A stretch of 58,489 nucleotides of DNA. Source: Nitrospirota bacterium. GTDB lineage: Bacteria; Nitrospirota; Thermodesulfovibrionia; SZUA-242. Of the stretch, positions 6,515 to 38,934 are shown piece by piece. The first letter of the stretch is position 1, and each line of letters begins with the position of its first letter. A program made the translations under genes and the position numbers. The notes beneath the pieces were generated by a model. The model did no database searches and was not told the DNA's origin. It saw only the letters and a list, made by a program, of their open reading frames with translations. The stretch is from the NCBI GenBank assembly GCA_003235715.1, contig QJVM01000148.1, forward strand, positions 1-58,489. The letters are read 5' to 3'.

Positions 6515-7246
6515 ATGGCCGATAAGACATATATGCCTGTCATTATTTACGAGGATAATCACTGTCTTGTGGTTAACAAGCCCTGGAATATGCTCGTTCA
6601 GCCGGATGATACAGGGGACATCAGCCTTTACGCCTGGGCGCAGGAGTGGGTCAAAAAAAAATCCCGTAAGCAGGGAAACGTTTATATCGGAATCGTGCAC
6701 AGGCTTGACCGTCCGGCTGGTGGAATTGTTCTTCTGGCCCGAACATCCAAGGCCGCATCGCGATTCTCAAATCAGTTCAGGGAAGGTCGGGTCGGCAAAC
6801 ACTATCTTGTTGTGGTAGAGGGAGATCCGGGGCCGCCCGGGGAACGGATTCACTACCTTAGAAAGAACGAGCGCTTGAACAGGACGCGGGTTAGTCTTGT
6901 GCCCGGAAGAGGACGCCGATCCCGTCTGACGATAAAGGCCGTCTGGCGGTCTGGAGGTCTTGCCTTGCTATGGATCGAGCTTGACACAGGGCGGTCCCAC
7001 CAGATTAGGGCCCAGCTATCCCATGAGCGCTGTCCCGTCGTAGGGGATCTTCGCTATGGTGCTTCAGGACCCCTTCCTGGCAAGCACATTGCTCTCTTTT
7101 CGTGGCGCATCGTGTTTGAGCACCCAACCCGAAAAATCACGGAAGTCCTGACATGCCCGCCTCCCTGGGACGAATATCCTTGGAATGAATTCCGGACGCA
7201 GGTGGATGCACTTCCCCCGGTTCCTGAGAATGGCATGCCCCAATAG
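6515..7246 (+). CDS. RluA-family pseudouridine synthase (no S4 domain)
   Basis: HRLDRPAGGIVLLART catalytic-Asp motif and TGRSHQIRAQL motif. Confidence 0.85.
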   Translation: MADKTYMPVIIYEDNHCLVVNKPWNMLVQPDDTGDISLYAWAQEWVKKKSRKQGNVYIGIVHRLDRPAGGIVLLARTSKAASRFSNQFREGRVGKHYLVVVEGDPGPPGERIHYLRKNERLNRTRVSLVPGRGRRSRLTIKAVWRSGGLALLWIELDTGRSHQIRAQLSHERCPVVGDLRYGASGPLPGKHIALFSWRIVFEHPTRKITEVLTCPPPWDEYPWNEFRTQVDALPPVPENGMPQ

Positions 7247-22153: not shown

Positions 22154-22603
22154 ATGCTCAAGCTTTCAACCAAGGGGCAGTACGGGGTTAGGGCCATGTT
22201 CGAAGTTGCCAGGAACTATGGCAAGGGCACCACGACCATCAAGGAGATTTCTGAAAGACAGGATGTTTCAGTCTCCTATCTCGAGCAGCTCCTCAATCGG
22301 CTCCGTCGAGCAGGCCTGGTGGACAGTGTGAAGGGCCCGGGCGGCGGCTATGTGCTGACGCGTGAGCCTGCGCAGGTCACCATCGGAGATATCCTCCGGG
22401 TGCTCGAGGGGCCGGTGGCCATCACCAGTTGTATGGATCCTTCTGCGGACGGGTGTGAACGGGTGGACTCCTGTGTGGCCCGGCTGCTCTGGAAATCGCT
22501 TGGGGAACGGATTGAGAAATTTCTTGATCAGATCACACTCCAGGAACTTCTGGAGGAAGAGAAGAACATCCTCTCTGGAACCCTTCGAATAGGACGCCTA
22601 TGA
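22154..22603 (+). CDS. iscR: Rrf2-family transcriptional regulator (IscR-like)
   Basis: MLKLSTKGQYGVRAMFEVA wHTH N-terminus and a three-Cys cluster (ITSCMDPSADGCERVDSC). Sits directly upstream of nifS-nifU. Confidence 0.85.
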   Translation: MLKLSTKGQYGVRAMFEVARNYGKGTTTIKEISERQDVSVSYLEQLLNRLRRAGLVDSVKGPGGGYVLTREPAQVTIGDILRVLEGPVAITSCMDPSADGCERVDSCVARLLWKSLGERIEKFLDQITLQELLEEEKNILSGTLRIGRL

Positions 22604-23766
22604 ATCCCGTATATGCCGACCACATAGCCACGACGCCATGCCGGCCCGAAGTCTTCGAGGCCATGAAGCCTTATTTCATGGAGCATTTCGGGAATCCGCT
22701 CAGCCTTCATGATTTCGGCCAGACGGCCCGCGATGCCATCGAGGCGGCGCGGGAGCAGGTGGCCGGGCTCATTGGTGCCAAAACAGAGGAGATTCTATAC
22801 ACCAGTTCGGGCACCGAGTCCTGCAACTTTGCGATCAAGGGAATGACGCACGCGTACCAGAAGAAAGGCCGACATATCGTGACCTCTTCGGTGGAACATC
22901 ACGCGGTGGCGAACCCGGTCAAGTTTCTGGAGAAAAACGGCTGTGAAGTGACGACCATTCCGGTAGATTCCGCAGGCCGGGTAGACCCGGACCAGGTGGC
23001 TCGGGCCCTGCGCGATGACACGGCGCTGGTCAGCATCATGCTCGCCAACAACGAGATCGGTACAATTCAGCCGGTGGCCGAGATCGGAAGGATAACCCGT
23101 GAGAGAGGAATTGTGTTCCATACCGATGCGTCCTGTGCAGTCGGAAACGTCCCGGTCGACGTAGAGGCCCTTCAGGTCGATGCCCTGAGCCTTTCGGGGC
23201 ACAAGTTCTTCGGGCCCAAGGGAGTCGGCGCCCTTTACCTGCGCAAGGGGACGCGCATAACGCCCCTCATTCACGGGGGCATCCAGGAAGGCGGGCGCCG
23301 TGCCGGCGCGGATAACGTGCCGGGTATCGTGGGGCTGGGCGCGGCCGCGGTACTGGCACGGGAGGAGATGAACGACCGGGTTGCCAGGGTGACGGACCTT
23401 CGGAACCGGCTGATCTCTGGAATTCTGGAACGGGTTGACGAGATTACCTACAACGGCCATCCCGAGTTGCGGCTTCCGGGAAACGTGAACATTGCGGTCA
23501 ACTATGTCGAGGGGGAGTCGCTCCTGCTTCTGCTTATGCATAAGGGGATTCTTGCTTCGAGCGGATCCACCTGTACCTCTCGTGCCCTCAAGGCCTCCGG
23601 CGTGCTTACGGCTATAGGGCTTTCGGAACAGGCCTGCCAGGGTTCTCTGCAGATGACCCTCGGACCGGGCAACACGGATGCGGAGGTGGACTATATTCTG
23701 GACGTACTTCCGGAGATCGTATCGAAGTTGCGGGCCATGTCGCCGCTGTACCATAGGAAGGACTAA
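22600..23766 (+). CDS. nifS: Cysteine desulfurase (NifS/IscS type)
   Basis: PLP-Lys motif SLSGHKFFGPKG and catalytic loop SSGSTCTS. 388 aa. Confidence 0.93.
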   Translation: MNPVYADHIATTPCRPEVFEAMKPYFMEHFGNPLSLHDFGQTARDAIEAAREQVAGLIGAKTEEILYTSSGTESCNFAIKGMTHAYQKKGRHIVTSSVEHHAVANPVKFLEKNGCEVTTIPVDSAGRVDPDQVARALRDDTALVSIMLANNEIGTIQPVAEIGRITRERGIVFHTDASCAVGNVPVDVEALQVDALSLSGHKFFGPKGVGALYLRKGTRITPLIHGGIQEGGRRAGADNVPGIVGLGAAAVLAREEMNDRVARVTDLRNRLISGILERVDEITYNGHPELRLPGNVNIAVNYVEGESLLLLLMHKGILASSGSTCTSRALKASGVLTAIGLSEQACQGSLQMTLGPGNTDAEVDYILDVLPEIVSKLRAMSPLYHRKD

Positions 23767-25684: not shown

Positions 25685-27070
25685 ATGAAGATCGTCGTTA
25701 TCGGTGCGGGCCCGGGCGGGTATGTCGCGGCGTTGCGCGCCGCGCAACGGGGCGCCGAGGTTACGGTGATAGAGGCAGAGGAGGTGGGCGGAACTTGTCT
25801 GAACTGGGGCTGCATCCCCACCAAGGCCCTGCTCGCTTCCGCGGAAACGTTCGCGCGGGTGAAACGGTGCGCGGATTACGGCCTTGAGGTATCCGGTGAG
25901 GTATTCGCACGCCTTGATCGCATCATGGCCCGAAAGGACAAGATCGTTTCCACCCAGGCCAAGGGAATCCGAAGCCTGTTCAAGAGCAGAGGGGTCACCC
26001 TCATGGAAGGCCGGGCCCGTCTTCAGTCACCCCGTTCGGTTGAGGTTTCCATGCAGGACGGAACACGGCGGCGAGTCGAAGGGGATGCCCTTCTTGTGGC
26101 CACGGGTTCCCGGCCCGCCTCGATCCCGGCCTTCCCATTTGATGGAAAGCGGGTCATCTCAAGCAATGAGGCGCTTCGTCTTTCGGAGGTGCCGAGAAGC
26201 CTCATGATTGTGGGGGCCGGCGTCATCGGTTGCGAGTTCGCCTTCATCTTCCGGGAACTGGGAAGTGAGGTGACCCTGATTGAAGCTATGCCGCGGGCCG
26301 TGTCCACCGAGGACCACGAGATATCCGAGATTCTTGAACGGGAGCTCAAGAAGAACAAGATCAAGCTCCTCAAGGATACGAAGATCCAGTCCATAGAGGT
26401 GACAGAGGAACAGGTAACGGCCCGCATTGAATCCGGTGCGTCGCTGGAGGCAAAGGTCGCGCTGGTATCGATTGGACGGGCGGCCAATACCCTGGACCTG
26501 GGCCTTGAGGATGTGGGTGTGAAATGCGGGGCCCGGGGGGAAATTGTGGTGGATGATCACCTGAGAACCAGCGTCGAGGGAGTCTACGCGGTGGGTGATG
26601 TGACCGGGGGGCTGATGCTGGCCCATGTGGCCTCCAAGCAGGGACTCATTGCCGTGGAGAACATCATGGGCGGAGATGTCCGCATGAACCATGAGGTCGT
26701 TCCTGCCGCGATATTCACCCACCCCGAAATCGGGTCCGTCGGGTTACGGGAACACCAGTGCGCGGAGCGCGGGCAGCGGATTAGGATCGGACGCTTTCCT
26801 TTCCGTGGTCTTGGGAAAGCCCATGCCATGGGCGAGATTGCCGGGATGGTCAAGGTCATTGCCGAGGATGGAACGGACCGGGTTCTGGGGGTTCACATCA
26901 TCGGTCCTCATGCCTCGGACCTCGTTCACGAGGCAGCCCTGGCCATGGAGAAAGGGCTCACGGTCCAGGATATCGCCGGAATGATTCATGCGCATCCCAC
27001 ACTTTCCGAAGGATTGATGGAAGCGTGTGAAGACGTGCACGGCATGGCAATTCATTTACCCCCAAAATAG
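25685..27070 (+). CDS. lpdA: Dihydrolipoyl dehydrogenase
   Basis: VVIGAGPGGYVAA (FAD), redox disulfide GGTCLNWGCIPTK, the NAD motif VGAGVIGCEFA, and HAHPTLSE at the C-terminus. Confidence 0.93.
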   Translation: MKIVVIGAGPGGYVAALRAAQRGAEVTVIEAEEVGGTCLNWGCIPTKALLASAETFARVKRCADYGLEVSGEVFARLDRIMARKDKIVSTQAKGIRSLFKSRGVTLMEGRARLQSPRSVEVSMQDGTRRRVEGDALLVATGSRPASIPAFPFDGKRVISSNEALRLSEVPRSLMIVGAGVIGCEFAFIFRELGSEVTLIEAMPRAVSTEDHEISEILERELKKNKIKLLKDTKIQSIEVTEEQVTARIESGASLEAKVALVSIGRAANTLDLGLEDVGVKCGARGEIVVDDHLRTSVEGVYAVGDVTGGLMLAHVASKQGLIAVENIMGGDVRMNHEVVPAAIFTHPEIGSVGLREHQCAERGQRIRIGRFPFRGLGKAHAMGEIAGMVKVIAEDGTDRVLGVHIIGPHASDLVHEAALAMEKGLTVQDIAGMIHAHPTLSEGLMEACEDVHGMAIHLPPK

Positions 27071-28794: not shown

Positions 28795-29628
28795 ATGTCT
28801 CTCTTTGACTATCTCAAGCCGGTGGAAACCATGGCGTCACCGGACGTAAAGCGCCTGCTGGATGAGAAGGGGCCCGATGGGGTAAACCTTATAGACGTCC
28901 GCCAACCCCGGGAGTACGAATCCGGACATCTCGCCGGGGCGGAATTGATCCCCGTGGCTGAACTCCAGGACCGTCTGAGGGATCTGGATAAATCCAAACC
29001 CACCGTCGCGTACTGAAGGTCGGGGGTGCGCAGCCGGGCGGCTGCGGCGGTACTGAAGGGAGCCGGCTTCCGGGAGGTCTACAGCATGGAGGGCGGTATT
29101 GACGCCTGGCATGGAGGTGTGGCGCTCGGATCTCCCGACCGAAGCGTGGCGTACTTCCTCGAGGCCGCTTCGCTTGACCATATGCTGGCCCTCGCCTGGT
29201 CGATGGAGGAGGGCGCCTTGCGATTCTATTCAGCGGCAGCTGAAAAGAGCACCACCCCGGAGGCCGAGACCCTGTTTCAACAACTGGTTACGGCCGAGAT
29301 TCATCACAAGGCTTCCGTTGAGAAACTGAGGGAAAGGCTGGCCCCCGGGGAATCCTCTTTCGATGAACTGGTTGGAGAGCCGAACCTCGTCGGGAATATC
29401 ATGGAAGGAGGGTTCTCCACGGAGGAGATCATCAAGCGTTACGCGGCCCTTGATCCCGAGGATGTTCTGGCTTTTGCCATGGCCATGGAAACGACCTCCT
29501 TCGACCTTTACCTTCGTCTCGGCCGGACGGTGAAGGAGGACGAGGCCACCCGTGCCTTCCAGTCTCTTGCTCATGAAGAAAGAAAACATCTCGACCGGCT
29601 GGCCCAGGCCATGGATCAGGGGTTCTGA
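28795..29628 (+). CDS. Rhodanese (Sec at the catalytic position) fused to a ferritin-like diiron domain; Sec encoded by TGA 29014-29016
   Basis: ORFs ending at 29016 and starting at 29026 share a frame. Joined, they read ...DKSKPTVAY-U-RSGVRSRAAAAVLKGAGFREVYSMEGGIDAW, i.e. the rhodanese loop C-R-S-G-x-R-S with U in place of C. The C-terminal half carries E / ExxH / E / ExxH (MEEGA, AEIHH, AMETT, HEERKH). Confidence 0.75.
29029..29046 (+). promoter_or_regulatory. SECIS-like stem-loop for the rhodanese/ferritin-like gene
   Basis: CGCAGCC-GGGC-GGCUGCG forms a 7-bp stem starting 12 nt after the UGA. Confidence 0.5.
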
Positions 29629-35944: not shown

Positions 35945-35964
35945 GACAACTGTACGTGACTGTT

Positions 35965-36003
35965 AAAAGGGGGGAGGAACCTTACGGTTCGTCCCCCCTT
36001 TAC
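35965..36003. terminator. Bidirectional hairpin terminator
   Basis: GGGGGGAGGAACC-TTAC-GGTTCGTCCCCCC (35969-35998), flanked by A/T runs. Lies between convergent transcription units. Confidence 0.6.
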
Positions 36004-36027: not shown

Positions 36028-37383
36028 CTATTCTGCCGCGATGTTGTAGTGTCCGTCCTTGTCGATCTCGATGTTGGCGTTCAGGAACCGGGCGTTATAG
36101 CCCTTTTCCTTCAGCGTCAGATAGGCCATCTCGGCGCGGATTCCCGTAATGCAGTGAAGGATGACTTCCTTGTCCTTGGGAATCTGGTCCACGTTGTCGG
36201 CCACATCCTGGGCAGGGATGTTATGGGCCCCCTTCAGCATGCCCTGCATGGCCTCATCCTCATCCCGCACATCGAGGATGAACTTGTCTCCAGGCATGGT
36301 TTCAACGATTTGCTTGAACTCGGCTACCGGGATGGAACCCGCGGCCGGTTTTGGAACGTAGACGATTTCCGTGGCCAGCTGGTTGCTCGCCAATTCGGCG
36401 CCGCTGTTCTTCCATGCGGGGAATCCGCCCTCAAGAACAGAGATGTTCTTGAAGCCCCAACCGCGAACAACCGCGAAAGAGGGCATCGCCTCGCTCTGGG
36501 TCTCCGCGTAGAGCACAACGGGCGCAGCCTTCGAGCCCGGGAAGGCGTTCTTCATGTTTGGCAGATCAGCGGCCGGAATCGATACGGCTCCGGGGATGTG
36601 CGCGGCTTTGGCCGAATCGACAGGCCGGAGGTCAATGACGACCACTGGCATGCCTTCCTTGTACTGATCCTGGAGGTATTTGGCGGTTGAGACGACAGGC
36701 ATCTTGGCCTTTTTCCAGGCCGGCATGCCGTCATGAAAGATCCTGACGTTGGTATATCCGAGTTTCTCCGCCCGACCGGCGGAAGAAGGGCTCAGCCTTC
36801 AAGTAGGGCCGCCGCAGTAGAAGATCAGGAGGCGGCTCTTGTCCTTCGGGAGTTTGTCGACATTTTCATCGAACTGGGCATCGTAGATGACGATGGAGCC
36901 GGGGATGTGCCCTTCGTGATACCTCGGCCCCGGACGCGCATCCACCAGCGTGTAATTTCCGGCTTCGGGGCCCTTGTCAACAAGGGCTGAAAGTTCTTCC
37001 AGCTTAATCAGTTTTTCCTCGGGGACGACCGCTGGCGGTTTGACATAGACCTTGGTGGCGTAGAGCTGGCCGTCCTCCTGCACATAATGGATGGCGATCT
37101 CCTTGCCCTGGCCGATGTTTTTGAAGTCCTTCTCTCCGATGAGCTCCGTATCGGCGTCGAAGGGGACCACCCAGGTGGCCGGGCCGATCTGAATCTTGAT
37201 GGTTTCAGCCTTGGCCGACACGGTTCCCAGCTGTCCCCGGAGTACCCCGGGTTCATCCTTGTGGCATTGCAGACAGGGTTTGATGATGGTGGGCTTTCCA
37301 TCCGCCGCCCAGGCGCCTGTCATGTACAGGACCGTTGCGGCCAGGAGAGCGACCGTCATCGTGATAAAGGCTCGTTTCCGCAT
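36028..37383 (-). CDS. Secreted monoheme c-type cytochrome fused to three rhodanese domains; selenoprotein with Sec encoded by TGA 36799-36801
   Basis: ORFs 36799..37464 and 36028..36726 are in frame. Joined, they read ...SRLLIFYCGGPT-U-RLSPSSAGRAEKLGYTNVRIFHDGMPAWKKA..., and the 72-nt gap encodes the missing C-terminal part of rhodanese domain 1. Signal peptide MRKRAFITMTVALLAATVLYMTGAWA and heme motif CLQCH are present. Domain 2 lacks a Cys; domain 3 has HCITGIRAE. AGGAGG RBS before the ATG at 37383. Confidence 0.7.
36763..36787 (-). promoter_or_regulatory. SECIS-like stem-loop for the heme-rhodanese gene
   Basis: UUCUUCCGCC-GGUCG-GGCGGAGAAA: 5 G:C pairs, then U:A and U:G, one mismatch, then 2 U:A. 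The GGUC-containing loop resembles the E. coli fdhF SECIS apex. Starts 11 nt after the UGA. Confidence 0.55.
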
Positions 37384-37452
37384 AATGCCTCCTTTCAGAA
37401 TTCGGACCGCCAGATGCGGTCCGGTCATGGATTCTGTAAACCGTATGACAAA

Positions 37453-37468
37453 AGCAATTGACATACCC
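37453..37468 (-). promoter_or_regulatory. Sigma-54 (-24/-12) type promoter for the heme-rhodanese selenoprotein gene
   Basis: The minus strand reads GGGTATG-TCAA-TTGCT, against the consensus TGGCACG-N4-TTGCW. GG and GC have the correct spacing. It lies about 70 nt upstream of the ATG at 37383. Confidence 0.4.
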
Positions 37469-37513: not shown

Positions 37514-37569
37514 GTTAACTCTATGGATCTGTTAACTTTGACGTGGTTAACGGTTAATGCTATGTTAAC
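37514..37569. repeat. Cluster of five GTTAAC/GTTAAT hexamers (candidate activator binding sites)
   Basis: GTTAAC at 37514, 37531, 37546 and 37564, and GTTAAT at 37553. They sit between the sigma-54 promoter and the divergent sigma-54 activator gene. Confidence 0.5.
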
Positions 37570-37572
37570 ACC

Positions 37573-38934
37573 ATGCCCTTCAAAGACTTTCAGGACGAAC
37601 ATTTTCTCTCCTCTCTTCTGGATACGATGACCGACGGCGTGATGGTCGTCGACCCGGAGGGAATCATCATGTGCCTGAATCCTGCTGCCGAACGCATCAC
37701 GGGTTACGCTTCGTCCGAAATCATCGGAAAGCCGTGCACCCTGCTGGATACGGACGCCTGCCTCGTGAGCGAGGGCGACACCAAGGTGAAGCGCTGTTCC
37801 CTTTTCAAGGAGGGCAAGGTTTCGAACCGACGGTGCCAGATACGGGGAAAGAACGGCCAGAACGTCATGCTCCTCAAGAATGCCGTAACGCTCCGGGACC
37901 CTTCAGGACAGGTGGTGGGCGCCGTGGAAACCATGACCGACGTAACCAGCCTTTTCATGAAGGAAATGGAAGTCGAGCAGCTTCGGCGGGAACTGTCGCA
38001 TGAGTATGGGTTCATGGGACTCGTCGGGAACAGTCCGGCCATGCAGCAGGTTTACGAACAGATCCGGAATGCCTCGCAGAGCGATGTGCCCGTCATTATT
38101 TCCGGTGAAAGCGGAACGGGGAAGGAACTGGCGGCCGAGGCCATACACCGGATGAGCCGCAGGAAAGAGGGTCCGTACATCCGGGTCAACTGTGCGGCGT
38201 TGAACGAGCACCTGCTCGAGACCGAACTCTTCGGACACCGGAAGGGCGCGTTTACGGGGGCCGTTGCAGACCGCAAGGGACGCTTCGAGGCGGCCGATGG
38301 CGGCAGTCTTTTCCTGGACGAAATCGGCGACATGTCCCCGGCCATGCAGGTCAAGCTGCTCCGTGTCCTTCAGGAAAAGGAGGTGGAGCGGATCGGCGAG
38401 AACCATCCGGTAAAGGTGGACGTCCGGATCATCACCGCCACCAACCGGGACCTAGACGCGCTCATGGAGAGTGGGAAGTTTCGGGAAGACCTCTATTACC
38501 GGGTCCATGTGCTGCCCGTCCACATTCCGCCCCTCCGGGAGCACATCGAGGATCTCGCCCAGCTGGTTCCCTATATTCTCAAGAGAATATCCGTGGTGAA
38601 CCGGAAAGCGGTCACCAGGGTTACGCCCGAGGCCTATGCGGTTCTGGAATCCTTCGAATGGCCCGGAAATATCCGGCAGTTGAATAATGCCCTGGAGTAC
38701 GCGGCGATCACTTGCCGCAAGGAGACAATTGAGGCGCGGGACCTGCCGGAATACCTGTCCCGTAGAAAGCCTCCAATGAGCCGGAGAGGCCGACAAATGC
38801 CCAGGGCGGAAGAACTCATCCAGGTGCTGCGCGACAACGGGTTTAACCGAACCCGGGCCGCAGAGGCCCTGGGCATCAGCCGGGTGGCCCTCTGGAAGCG
38901 CATGAAGCGGCTTGGAATTTCCGACCTGTCATGA
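37573..38934 (+). CDS. Sigma-54-dependent transcriptional activator with an N-terminal PAS domain
   Basis: PAS (MVVDPEGIIMCLNPAAERITGY); AAA+ domain with GESGTGKE, GAFTGA and LFLDEIG; C-terminal Fis-type HTH (NRTRAAEALGISRVALWKRMKRLGI). Confidence 0.92.
   Translation: MPFKDFQDEHFLSSLLDTMTDGVMVVDPEGIIMCLNPAAERITGYASSEIIGKPCTLLDTDACLVSEGDTKVKRCSLFKEGKVSNRRCQIRGKNGQNVMLLKNAVTLRDPSGQVVGAVETMTDVTSLFMKEMEVEQLRRELSHEYGFMGLVGNSPAMQQVYEQIRNASQSDVPVIISGESGTGKELAAEAIHRMSRRKEGPYIRVNCAALNEHLLETELFGHRKGAFTGAVADRKGRFEAADGGSLFLDEIGDMSPAMQVKLLRVLQEKEVERIGENHPVKVDVRIITATNRDLDALMESGKFREDLYYRVHVLPVHIPPLREHIEDLAQLVPYILKRISVVNRKAVTRVTPEAYAVLESFEWPGNIRQLNNALEYAAITCRKETIEARDLPEYLSRRKPPMSRRGRQMPRAEELIQVLRDNGFNRTRAAEALGISRVALWKRMKRLGISDLS

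Follow-up and report, generated by a model that had tools for sequence, protein, structure and literature searches.

A triple-rhodanese gene with an in-frame UGA codon: a probable exported selenoprotein of Nitrospirota and Desulfobacterota

Two neighboring open reading frames (ORFs) on the minus strand of a contig from a Nitrospirota bacterium (QJVM01000148.1, assembly GCA_003235715.1; the whole stretch of 58,489 nucleotides that was analyzed is called the window here) are the halves of one 451-residue gene at positions 36028–37383. The codon at which they part, a TGA inside the active-site loop of a rhodanese domain, is almost certainly decoded as selenocysteine (Sec). That the two ORFs form a single gene for an exported selenoprotein, with UGA decoded as Sec and with a role in handling sulfur, is in our estimate about 80 per cent probable.

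One reading frame, a conserved UGA/Cys column, and a covarying hairpin

Coordinates are those of the window, and all parts of the gene lie on its minus strand. In the ORF table, the two halves (36799..37464 and 36028..36726) share one frame; the upstream ORF ends at TGA 36799–36801, and 72 nt (24 sense codons) follow up to ATG 36726. Translation of 36028–37383 yields 451 residues with a sole internal stop, which falls within ...LLIFYCGGPT-stop-RLSPSSAGRAEKLGY... (in longer context, ...SRLLIFYCGGPT-stop-RLSPSSAGRAEKLGYTNVRIFHDGMPAWKKA...). The stop is codon 195, and Cys190, at the canonical catalytic position, stands five residues before it. A preliminary description of this DNA, made from the sequence alone, had drawn the same picture of two ORFs in one frame, the first ending inside a rhodanese catalytic loop, and of a 451-residue product with one internal stop; both the coordinates and the translation agree with it. 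Its further claim, that the 72 supposedly non-coding nucleotides supply the remainder of the rhodanese, holds as well: the protein matches the Pfam Rhodanese family (PF00581) with 153.4 bits versus a gathering threshold of 22.2 in three stretches, the best of which (residues 136–226) crosses the stop, so that these nucleotides encode the second half of the rhodanese fold.

The complete gene (36028..37383), as delimited by the translation and by single-polypeptide Cys homologs, comprises 451 codons, with the UGA read through at codon 195, and a TAG stop. Its start is likely ATG 37383, since a ribosome-binding site that can be read from the sequence (AAGGAGG, 37388..37394) lies 4 nt upstream and the same MRKRAF start was picked by a gene caller on an independent contig. 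ATG 37464, the start given in the ORF table, is probably unused.

A protein search retrieved more than 1000 relatives, and the full-length ones are single polypeptides of approximately 450 residues that carry the motif F[YF]CxGxTC, with its last Cys aligned to the UGA column. In a genome scan with one genome per species, the codon in this column was TGA in 55 and TGC or TGT in 25 of the best 80 species-representative loci. Together with the window and metagenome contigs, the genome loci provide 62 distinct TGA sequences, which with the 25 Cys loci make up the 87 loci referred to below; neither TAA nor TAG occurs in the column among these 62 TGA and 25 Cys sequences. The in-frame UGA (36799..36801), read here as Sec195, is therefore aligned with TGA in 62 distinct orthologous sequences and with Cys in all 25 Cys forms, as the preliminary description had anticipated when it asked for single-polypeptide homologs with Cys or Sec at this position. 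The TGA loci belong to Nitrospirota (including Thermodesulfovibrionales and Dissulfurispiraceae), Desulfocapsaceae/Desulfobulbaceae, Desulfomonilaceae, Desulfarculaceae, and Caldimicrobium, and the TGC/TGT loci to Betaproteobacteria, Geobacterales/Desulfuromonadales, and two Nitrospirota. The TGC codon of Cys190 (36814..36816), the CxxCH motif near the N terminus, and the HCxTGxRA loop of the third rhodanese domain are kept in 87/87 loci.

The traces of mis-annotation point to the same codon. Six matches of 256 residues (58–61 per cent identity) begin with 'MLSPSS...', exactly one codon past the UGA column, and on their contigs an ORF of approximately 190 residues ends in TGA, with the called start of the 256-residue ORF immediately after it. 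Gene callers thus cut the TGA forms into approximately 190 and 256 residues precisely at the UGA codon, and a split into two ORFs was found in every TGA-bearing assembly examined. Protein-level conservation extends through the 24 codons past the UGA, which contain no conserved start codon. The preliminary description had named a sequencing error as one way in which the reading could fail; an independent public assembly (Logan SRR29850985) contains the same 5.2 kb at 99.96 per cent identity with the same TGA (locus L089), and two further sequencing runs show the same split ORF pair. The pattern of the Sec/Cys column is incompatible with a sequencing error, with a pseudogene, and with two independent genes.

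One assembly of the family, a Thermodesulfovibrionales metagenome-assembled genome (L017), has an additional in-frame TGA approximately 84 nt past the Sec codon, at the position of the invariant Trp223 (GMPE-stop-KKAG). An error or mutation from TGG to TGA in that one assembly is the likeliest cause.

Downstream of the UGA, inside the coding sequence, the RNA can form a hairpin resembling a selenocysteine insertion sequence (SECIS) element (36758..36795), as judged from the fold of the window sequence and the comparison of orthologs. Its upper stem pairs 36784–36787 with 36764–36767 and 36778–36782 with 36768–36772, leaving a bulged U at 36783 and a GGUCG loop at 36773–36777. The stem-loop with this loop sequence had been noticed before and does fold at 36764–36787; a lower helix, in which 36791–36795 pair with 36758–36762, extends it to 36758–36795. 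The hairpin starts 14 nt and its loop 21 nt after the UGA. The bSECISearch work of Zhang and Gladyshev from 2005 reportedly places the apical loop of bacterial SECIS elements 16–37 nt from the UGA, with a G in the loop. Position, size, bulged U, and G-containing loop also fit bacterial SECIS elements such as that of fdhF. The hairpin would act as a bacterial SECIS element for SelB.

Covariation was assessed on 57 distinct TGA-type sequences in a gap-free alignment (A4), in which columns 18–24, numbered from the U of the UGA, pair with columns 30–36. The upper helix is paired in 94 per cent of cells, and double-sided changes occur in four of its seven pairs (columns 21/33, for example, show U-A, C-G, G-C, and U-G). 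In 500 column shuffles, neither the observed covariation score nor the observed percentage paired was ever reached, and sliding the 3′ partners by 1–3 columns reduced pairing to only 33–49 per cent. The second base of the loop (G26) is G in at least 90 per cent of the sequences. All pairs of the upper helix can form in 41 of the 62 TGA sequences versus 1 of the 25 Cys sequences. That single locus (L026, Nitrospirae bacterium SKS1.bin28, approximately 6591–6640) is a Cys form (TGC) nested among Sec forms, retains 7/7 hairpin pairs, and resembles a recent replacement of Sec by Cys that has left a relic SECIS.

The window contains a second selenoprotein candidate, a rhodanese-rubrerythrin gene on the plus strand (approximately 28795–29628) with TGA 29014–29016 in its rhodanese domain. 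This UGA occupies the canonical catalytic Cys position (KPTVAY-U-RSGVRSRAAA), to which Cys190 of the 451-residue protein aligns; past it, the frame runs on into a rubrerythrin/ferritin-like domain, with the GC-rich hairpin CGCAGCC-GGGC-GGCUGCG downstream of the TGA. Homologs are single rhodanese-rubrerythrin proteins of 275–280 residues with TYCRSGVRS at the UGA column, and the closest relatives (74–99 per cent identity) are truncated calls of 192 and 200 residues. With two independent UGA/Cys pairs within 58 kb, the host organism very likely decodes Sec.

A few kilobases from this second gene, the window also encodes, on the plus strand, a NifS-type cysteine desulfurase (22600–23766), which at 526 bits narrowly misses the cut-off of 530.75, and a dihydrolipoyl dehydrogenase (25685–27070). 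Elsewhere, at locus L033 (approximately −5164 to −2482 from the Sec codon), the gene of a formate-dehydrogenase-like molybdoenzyme is broken into two ORFs. The break falls after ...NVDNCARV, the usual position of the FdhA selenocysteine, and is probably another unannotated Sec codon in that genome.

Several observations count against Sec insertion at codon 195. Taken alone, the window's hairpin does not exceed shuffled sequence in stability (z = −0.65), so that its significance comes solely from the comparison of orthologs. The preliminary description had proposed a search with a bacterial SECIS model; Rfam gave no match, either at the gathering threshold over the whole window or in a permissive search (E up to 10) over 36600–36900, a null that weighs little because bacterial SECIS elements are poorly captured by family models. 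Because the hairpin region also encodes a conserved SPxSAxKAE, its conservation is due in part to coding, and Cys forms pair at 71 per cent of cells; the contrast in complete hairpins between TGA and Cys sequences is the informative figure. No tRNA gene, including tRNA-Sec, was found in the 58-kb window by ARAGORN, nor any selA, selB, or selD by Pfam and NCBIfam scans of its approximately 50 ORFs, so the capacity to decode Sec has to be judged from the two UGA genes alone. The alternative that the UGA is an ordinary stop, which leaves either two genes, for a CxxCH/partial-rhodanese protein of 194 residues and a double-rhodanese protein of 232 residues, or a pseudogene or sequencing error, would agree with the two ORFs annotated in every TGA-bearing assembly and with the Sec machinery missing from the window, and the extra TGA at the invariant Trp in L017 indicates that errors or decay occur in such assemblies, but this alternative is close to refuted, as it would interrupt a rhodanese fold halfway through the active-site loop and runs counter to the protein-level conservation of 24 post-UGA codons without a conserved start, to the retention of TGA in 62 divergent sequences from several phyla with Cys in the remainder, to a covarying downstream hairpin specific to TGA forms, and to the recurrence of the same TGA in an independent sequencing run.

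Domain composition and known relatives

The preliminary description had divided the selenoprotein into a signal peptide, an N-domain of approximately 100 residues with a heme motif, and three rhodanese modules, of which one has Cys and Sec five residues apart, one lacks Cys, and one has a normal Cys loop. Pfam and the translation bear out the three modules. Domain 1 (residues 136–226; 36706..36978) has the loop C190-G-G-P-T-U195-R, in which Sec195 takes the place at the end of the active-site loop where canonical rhodaneses carry a conserved Arg. Domain 2 (residues approximately 247–333; 36385..36645) is a Pfam stretch to which PDB sequence matches, covering residues 221–307 of the mature protein, can also be aligned; the catalytic position (alignment columns 290–295) is without Cys (VVLYAETQ), and the domain is, to judge by its sequence, catalytically dead. 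Domain 3 (residues approximately 353–434; 36082..36327) has the canonical loop H410-C411-I-T-G-I-R416 (HCxTGxRA invariant), of the six-residue sulfurtransferase type, and its best PDB sequence match is the rhodanese domain of a Shewanella NADH persulfide reductase (3nta; E = 1e-13), with CoADR-RHD (3icr) also among the matches.

At the N terminus, residues 1–26 (MRKRAFITMTVALLAATVLYMTGAWA, then ADG; 37306..37383) are predicted to form a Sec-type signal peptide (Sec here denoting the export pathway); the basic n-region, hydrophobic core, and AWA-A cleavage motif can be read from the sequence, in line with the earlier description. The segment has a predicted local distance difference test score (pLDDT) below 50 in the model of a homolog. 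Eleven residues past the predicted cleavage site lies CLQCH (residues 37–41; 37261..37275), a CxxCH motif whose C37, C40, and H41 are invariant in 87/87 loci and which is a candidate site of covalent heme c attachment. The following domain (residues approximately 46–117; 37033..37248) is covered by no Pfam family, and only 3 of 89 members gave weak DUF7283 matches. When the N-domain of the window protein was modeled alone (AlphaFold2, pLDDT 85), it formed a five-stranded OB-fold beta-barrel. Its best PDB fold matches are to CusF, a periplasmic Cu(I)/Ag(I) chaperone (2vb2, 3e6z, and 1zeq; template modeling [TM] scores of 0.57–0.70); the identity is 16 per cent, the metal ligands of CusF are not conserved here, and CusF is a stand-alone protein without a CxxCH tail. 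Of the heme-bearing N-domain that had been described, the motif thus stands, whereas the domain has the CusF-like OB fold and not a cytochrome c fold.

For the full-length protein, we used an AlphaFold2 model of a Cys homolog (P0001; 52 per cent identity, 92-sequence alignment), with a pLDDT of 91 and a predicted TM-score of 0.83. The CxxCH segment reaches a pLDDT of 84–87 in this model versus 46–65 in the isolated domain, and this rise hints that the segment may pack against the rhodanese body. Because the motif is invariant in an exported protein, we consider covalent heme c on CxxCH likely. The conserved candidates for a distal heme ligand are H410, C190, C/U195, C411, K115, and K182.

Some findings speak against a heme protein. 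No Pfam or NCBIfam cytochrome family matches anywhere in the protein, and there is no cytochrome fold; no Met is conserved anywhere in it, and the only conserved histidines are H41 and H410. Relatives of 373–383 residues without the N-domain keep the CX4C pair, so the Cys/Cys(Sec) pair has a role independent of CxxCH. The protein could still be a selenoprotein in which CxxCH is a redox-active or metal-binding site on the tail of a CusF-like metallochaperone domain, that is, a thiol/selenol relay or a metal-handling protein without cytochrome function. We regard this non-heme reading as somewhat unlikely. It agrees with the fold match to a Cu(I)/Ag(I) chaperone, with the missing cytochrome match, with the lack of a conserved distal Met or His in the N-domain, and with the disorder of the motif segment when the domain is modeled alone. 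However, the two cysteines and the histidine are all invariant with exact CxxCH spacing, and the metal ligands of CusF (His, Met, Met, and Trp) differ from the residues conserved here. The protein is moreover exported, and cytochrome c maturation systems recognize little beyond CxxCH in an unfolded periplasmic chain.

The preliminary description had not recognized this architecture, and the protein does match no curated model; yet, Sec-containing rhodanese proteins as such are a catalogued class with five forms, UxxS, UxxG, CxU, UxxG, and UxxxxU (PMC13188914). Form 1 (UxxS) is represented by WP_010941598.1, CxU by NF041203 (rhodanese_LYCAU), and UxxxxU by TsoB (NF045694) (PMC13188914). As in the gene described here, these forms have Sec in or beside the rhodanese active-site loop, and Cys homologs exist; by their descriptions, none has a signal peptide, CxxCH, an OB domain, and three rhodaneses. 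The LYCAU family likewise keeps the canonical Cys and has Sec a few residues later, but the protein scores 70.8 bits against a cut-off of 115, and its spacing is C-x4-U and not C-x-U. TsoB shares the x4 spacing between its selenocysteines, and its rhodanese region aligns with domain 1 (residues 122–241; E = 7e-17), whereas the score here is 60.8 bits against a cut-off of 805, and the window protein has a single Sec and lacks a DsbD-like membrane domain. Formally, the UxxS of form 1 would accommodate the local string U-R-L-S. Identity with form 1, which was compared by motif description only, nevertheless seems unlikely, because a search seeded with a Geobacteraceae member of the family gave no G. 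sulfurreducens protein among its 120 best relatives. Relative to the listed forms, and within a literature check that is incomplete, the C-x4-U spacing, the single Sec at a non-catalytic loop position, and the combination of signal peptide, CxxCH, OB domain, and triple rhodanese appear to be new.

Among proteins of known structure, YnjE of Escherichia coli (2wlr and 3ipo), a periplasmic sulfurtransferase, is also exported and has three tandem rhodaneses with the catalytic Cys in the C-terminal one (Foldseek E = 1e-10 over approximately 405 aligned columns). It differs in its domain arrangement (TM approximately 0.25) and shares only 16–17 per cent identity, and it has no CxxCH/OB N-domain, no second loop Cys, and no Sec. 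A PDB fold search with the whole model gave only generic multi-rhodanese proteins with low TM-scores, and the arrangement of domains is therefore different.

Genomic neighborhoods and regulation

The gene is monocistronic in the window. Its stop codon is followed after 27 nt by a terminator-like element on the same strand (35962..36001), a GC-rich hairpin at 35966–36001 and then UUUU, which folds with −28.9 kcal/mol (z = −4.6; 0 of 200 shuffles fold as well) and which a consensus terminator scan missed because it has only four T. Convergent genes for a MacB-type ATP-binding cassette (ABC) exporter lie downstream.

Upstream and divergent, on the plus strand, Pfam identifies an enhancer-binding protein with PAS, sigma-54-interaction, and HTH_8 domains (37573..38934). 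An ortholog of this activator adjoins the rhodanese gene in 18 loci including the window, with identity of up to 60 per cent. The activator probably regulates the gene and would thus control its expression in this organism. Approximately 70 nt before the start codon lies a candidate sigma-54 promoter on the minus strand (GGGTATGTCAATTGCT, GG-N9-TTGC; 37453..37468), and GGCAT-N6-TTGCT recurs at a similar upstream distance in at least 8 of the 18 orthologous loci that carry the adjacent activator. The window holds no excess of the bare sigma-54 pattern (10 matches versus 15.6 expected); because the pattern is not rare there, the promoter is a candidate only, for which position and conservation among orthologs speak. 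Four GTTAAC palindromes between the divergent genes (37514..37569) are possible binding sites of the activator.

This activator has an N-terminal PAS domain in place of a receiver domain. The PAS region contains several cysteines, shared with the ortholog at L035 (GKPCT...C...C...C; other orthologs occur, for example, at L027 and L032–L036), and may bind a redox cofactor or sense sulfide. At 11 loci, the rhodanese gene is accompanied by a PAS histidine kinase.

Other neighborhoods connect Cys forms with respiratory genes. At six Geobacterales loci, the order is DUF3373 outer-membrane barrel, a protein of approximately 109 residues, the Cys-form rhodanese, a molybdoenzyme exported by twin-arginine translocation (Tat), an NrfD membrane subunit, and a 4Fe-4S subunit. 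The best NCBIfam match of the molybdoenzyme is the thiosulfate reductase PhsA, at 526 bits and thus short of the cut-off of 694, with scores of at most 176 bits for ArrA and at most 170 bits for YnfF. In Betaproteobacteria, a PsrA-like gene and a further rhodanese lie upstream of the Cys form. An accessory sulfur carrier of Psr/Phs-type polysulfide or thiosulfate reductases, in the manner of Sud, would be expected in an operon with such genes. The Psr/Phs-like operon is present at the six Geobacterales Cys-form loci and partly in Betaproteobacteria, and not in the window or at most Sec-form loci.

The protein of approximately 109 residues is periplasmic and is encoded directly upstream of the Cys-form gene, after the DUF3373 barrel (L070, L077, L079, L086, L087, and L088). 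It matches no Pfam or NCBIfam model, and a comparison with the OB N-domain of the rhodanese protein revealed no similarity. It ends in ...K(K)TAGC, a tail with a C-terminal Cys that is reminiscent of SoxY, a sulfur carrier of the swinging-arm type.

Proposed function and significance

We propose that the selenoprotein handles sulfane sulfur, as polysulfide, thiosulfate, or persulfides, in the periplasm, a role to which we give about even odds. The preliminary description had suggested a periplasmic carrier or reductase for polysulfide, thiosulfate, or selenium species; this fits the gene neighborhoods, and we retain it in conditional form. A rhodanese cysteine (Cys411 and/or Cys190) would take up sulfur as a persulfide, and Cys190 and Sec195 would form a redox-active thiol/selenol couple, in which Sec195 would attack the persulfide or a bound polysulfide to give a selenylsulfide, with the sulfur released or transferred. 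It would then fall to the CxxCH cofactor or to a partner enzyme to re-reduce or re-oxidize the Cys/Sec pair, and a candidate electron partner is the Psr/Phs-type molybdoenzyme encoded beside Cys forms.

Two known systems offer parallels. The closest matches of domain 3 among solved structures (E of 1e-13 to 1e-5) are Shewanella loihica Npsr (3nta and 3ntd), CoADR-RHD (3icr), and a CoA-persulfide reductase (8a56), in which a rhodanese Cys presents persulfide or polysulfide to a redox center of the same protein. These enzymes are cytoplasmic flavoproteins with a single rhodanese, whereas the protein described here is exported, and its candidate redox partners are the Cys/Sec pair and CxxCH. The second parallel is MccSep/ExtKL, the periplasmic polysulfide-reducing selenoprotein of Geobacter sulfurreducens, which is a multiheme cytochrome c and whose neighbors include ExtH, a rhodanese lipoprotein, and ExtI, a porin (PMC13510729). 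Both proteins are periplasmic and combine CxxCH with one Sec for which Cys homologs exist, MccSep acts in sulfur respiration, and a module of outer-membrane barrel, small periplasmic protein, and rhodanese is found at its locus as at the Geobacterales Cys forms. There is, however, no sequence relationship. MccSep has five hemes and no rhodanese, as opposed to one CxxCH and three rhodaneses here, and the terminal enzyme beside the Cys forms is a Psr/Phs-like molybdoenzyme and not a multiheme cytochrome.

Against a role in sulfur handling it must be weighed that an incomplete literature search found no characterized member of the family, and that the Psr-like link is confined to Cys-form lineages, the neighbors in the window being an ABC exporter and a regulator. 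The main functional rival is a true selenoprotein that acts on selenium, tellurium, or arsenic oxyanions instead of sulfur, with the Cys-x4-Sec pair chelating or reducing the metalloid, either in periplasmic selenite binding or reduction, as proposed for ExtH, or as an arsenate reductase of the Cdc25/Acr2 type. The protein does match the rhodanese ExtH of selenite/tellurite operons (NF040901), but only weakly (24 bits against a cut-off of 200), and it has an AWA-A cleavage site and no lipobox. Domain 1 of the window protein shows the C-x5-R spacing and, in the PDB, weakly matches the Arabidopsis Cdc25/arsenate-reductase-like protein 1t3k, but the Arg after Sec/Cys is not conserved among relatives, which have R, M, A, N, S, T, Q, or V there. 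The molybdoenzyme beside the Cys forms also scores against models of selenate and arsenate reductases, although well below its PhsA score, as given above. The host lineages (Thermodesulfovibrionales, Dissulfurispiraceae, Desulfocapsaceae, and Desulfobulbaceae) are sulfur-cycling specialists. Finally, the Geobacterales layout of barrel, small periplasmic protein, and rhodanese recalls extHIJ-KL, but ExtKL itself is a polysulfide reductase (PMC13510729). We judge a metalloid role improbable.

Within the sulfur-handling proposal, a more far-reaching arrangement can be envisaged, in which a heme on CxxCH lies against the rhodanese body and has Cys190, Sec195, or the His410-Cys411 pair as its sixth ligand or reaction partner. 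Such a heme-coupled thiol/selenol center is speculative, and we think it unlikely. If it exists, the protein would represent a new kind of selenoenzyme in the periplasm, one that itself reduces or oxidizes polysulfide or thiosulfate and is not a passive sulfur carrier. Its chemistry would parallel, from an unrelated fold, that of MccSep and of TsdA and SoxXA, both of which have Cys-ligated hemes.

The gene is a real, conserved, and systematically mis-annotated selenoprotein gene. The mis-splitting affects at least 55 species-level genomes of Nitrospirota and Desulfobacterota, and a curated family model would repair the split annotations and add a widespread member to the prokaryotic selenoproteome. 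The recoding itself will not surprise specialists; what sets the family apart is a Sec at the end of a rhodanese loop that retains its catalytic Cys (the Cys-x4-Sec loop), the combination of this loop with an invariant CxxCH in an exported protein, the wide distribution among sulfur cyclers, and the heme/Sec parallel with MccSep. Its hosts live by sulfate reduction, sulfur disproportionation, and sulfur respiration, and the family is a defined candidate for the hand-over of sulfane sulfur to, or its processing alongside, Psr/Phs-type reductases. Together with the Sec-containing polysulfide reductase of Geobacter (PMC13510729), it suggests that selenium-assisted periplasmic S–S chemistry is more common than has been thought.

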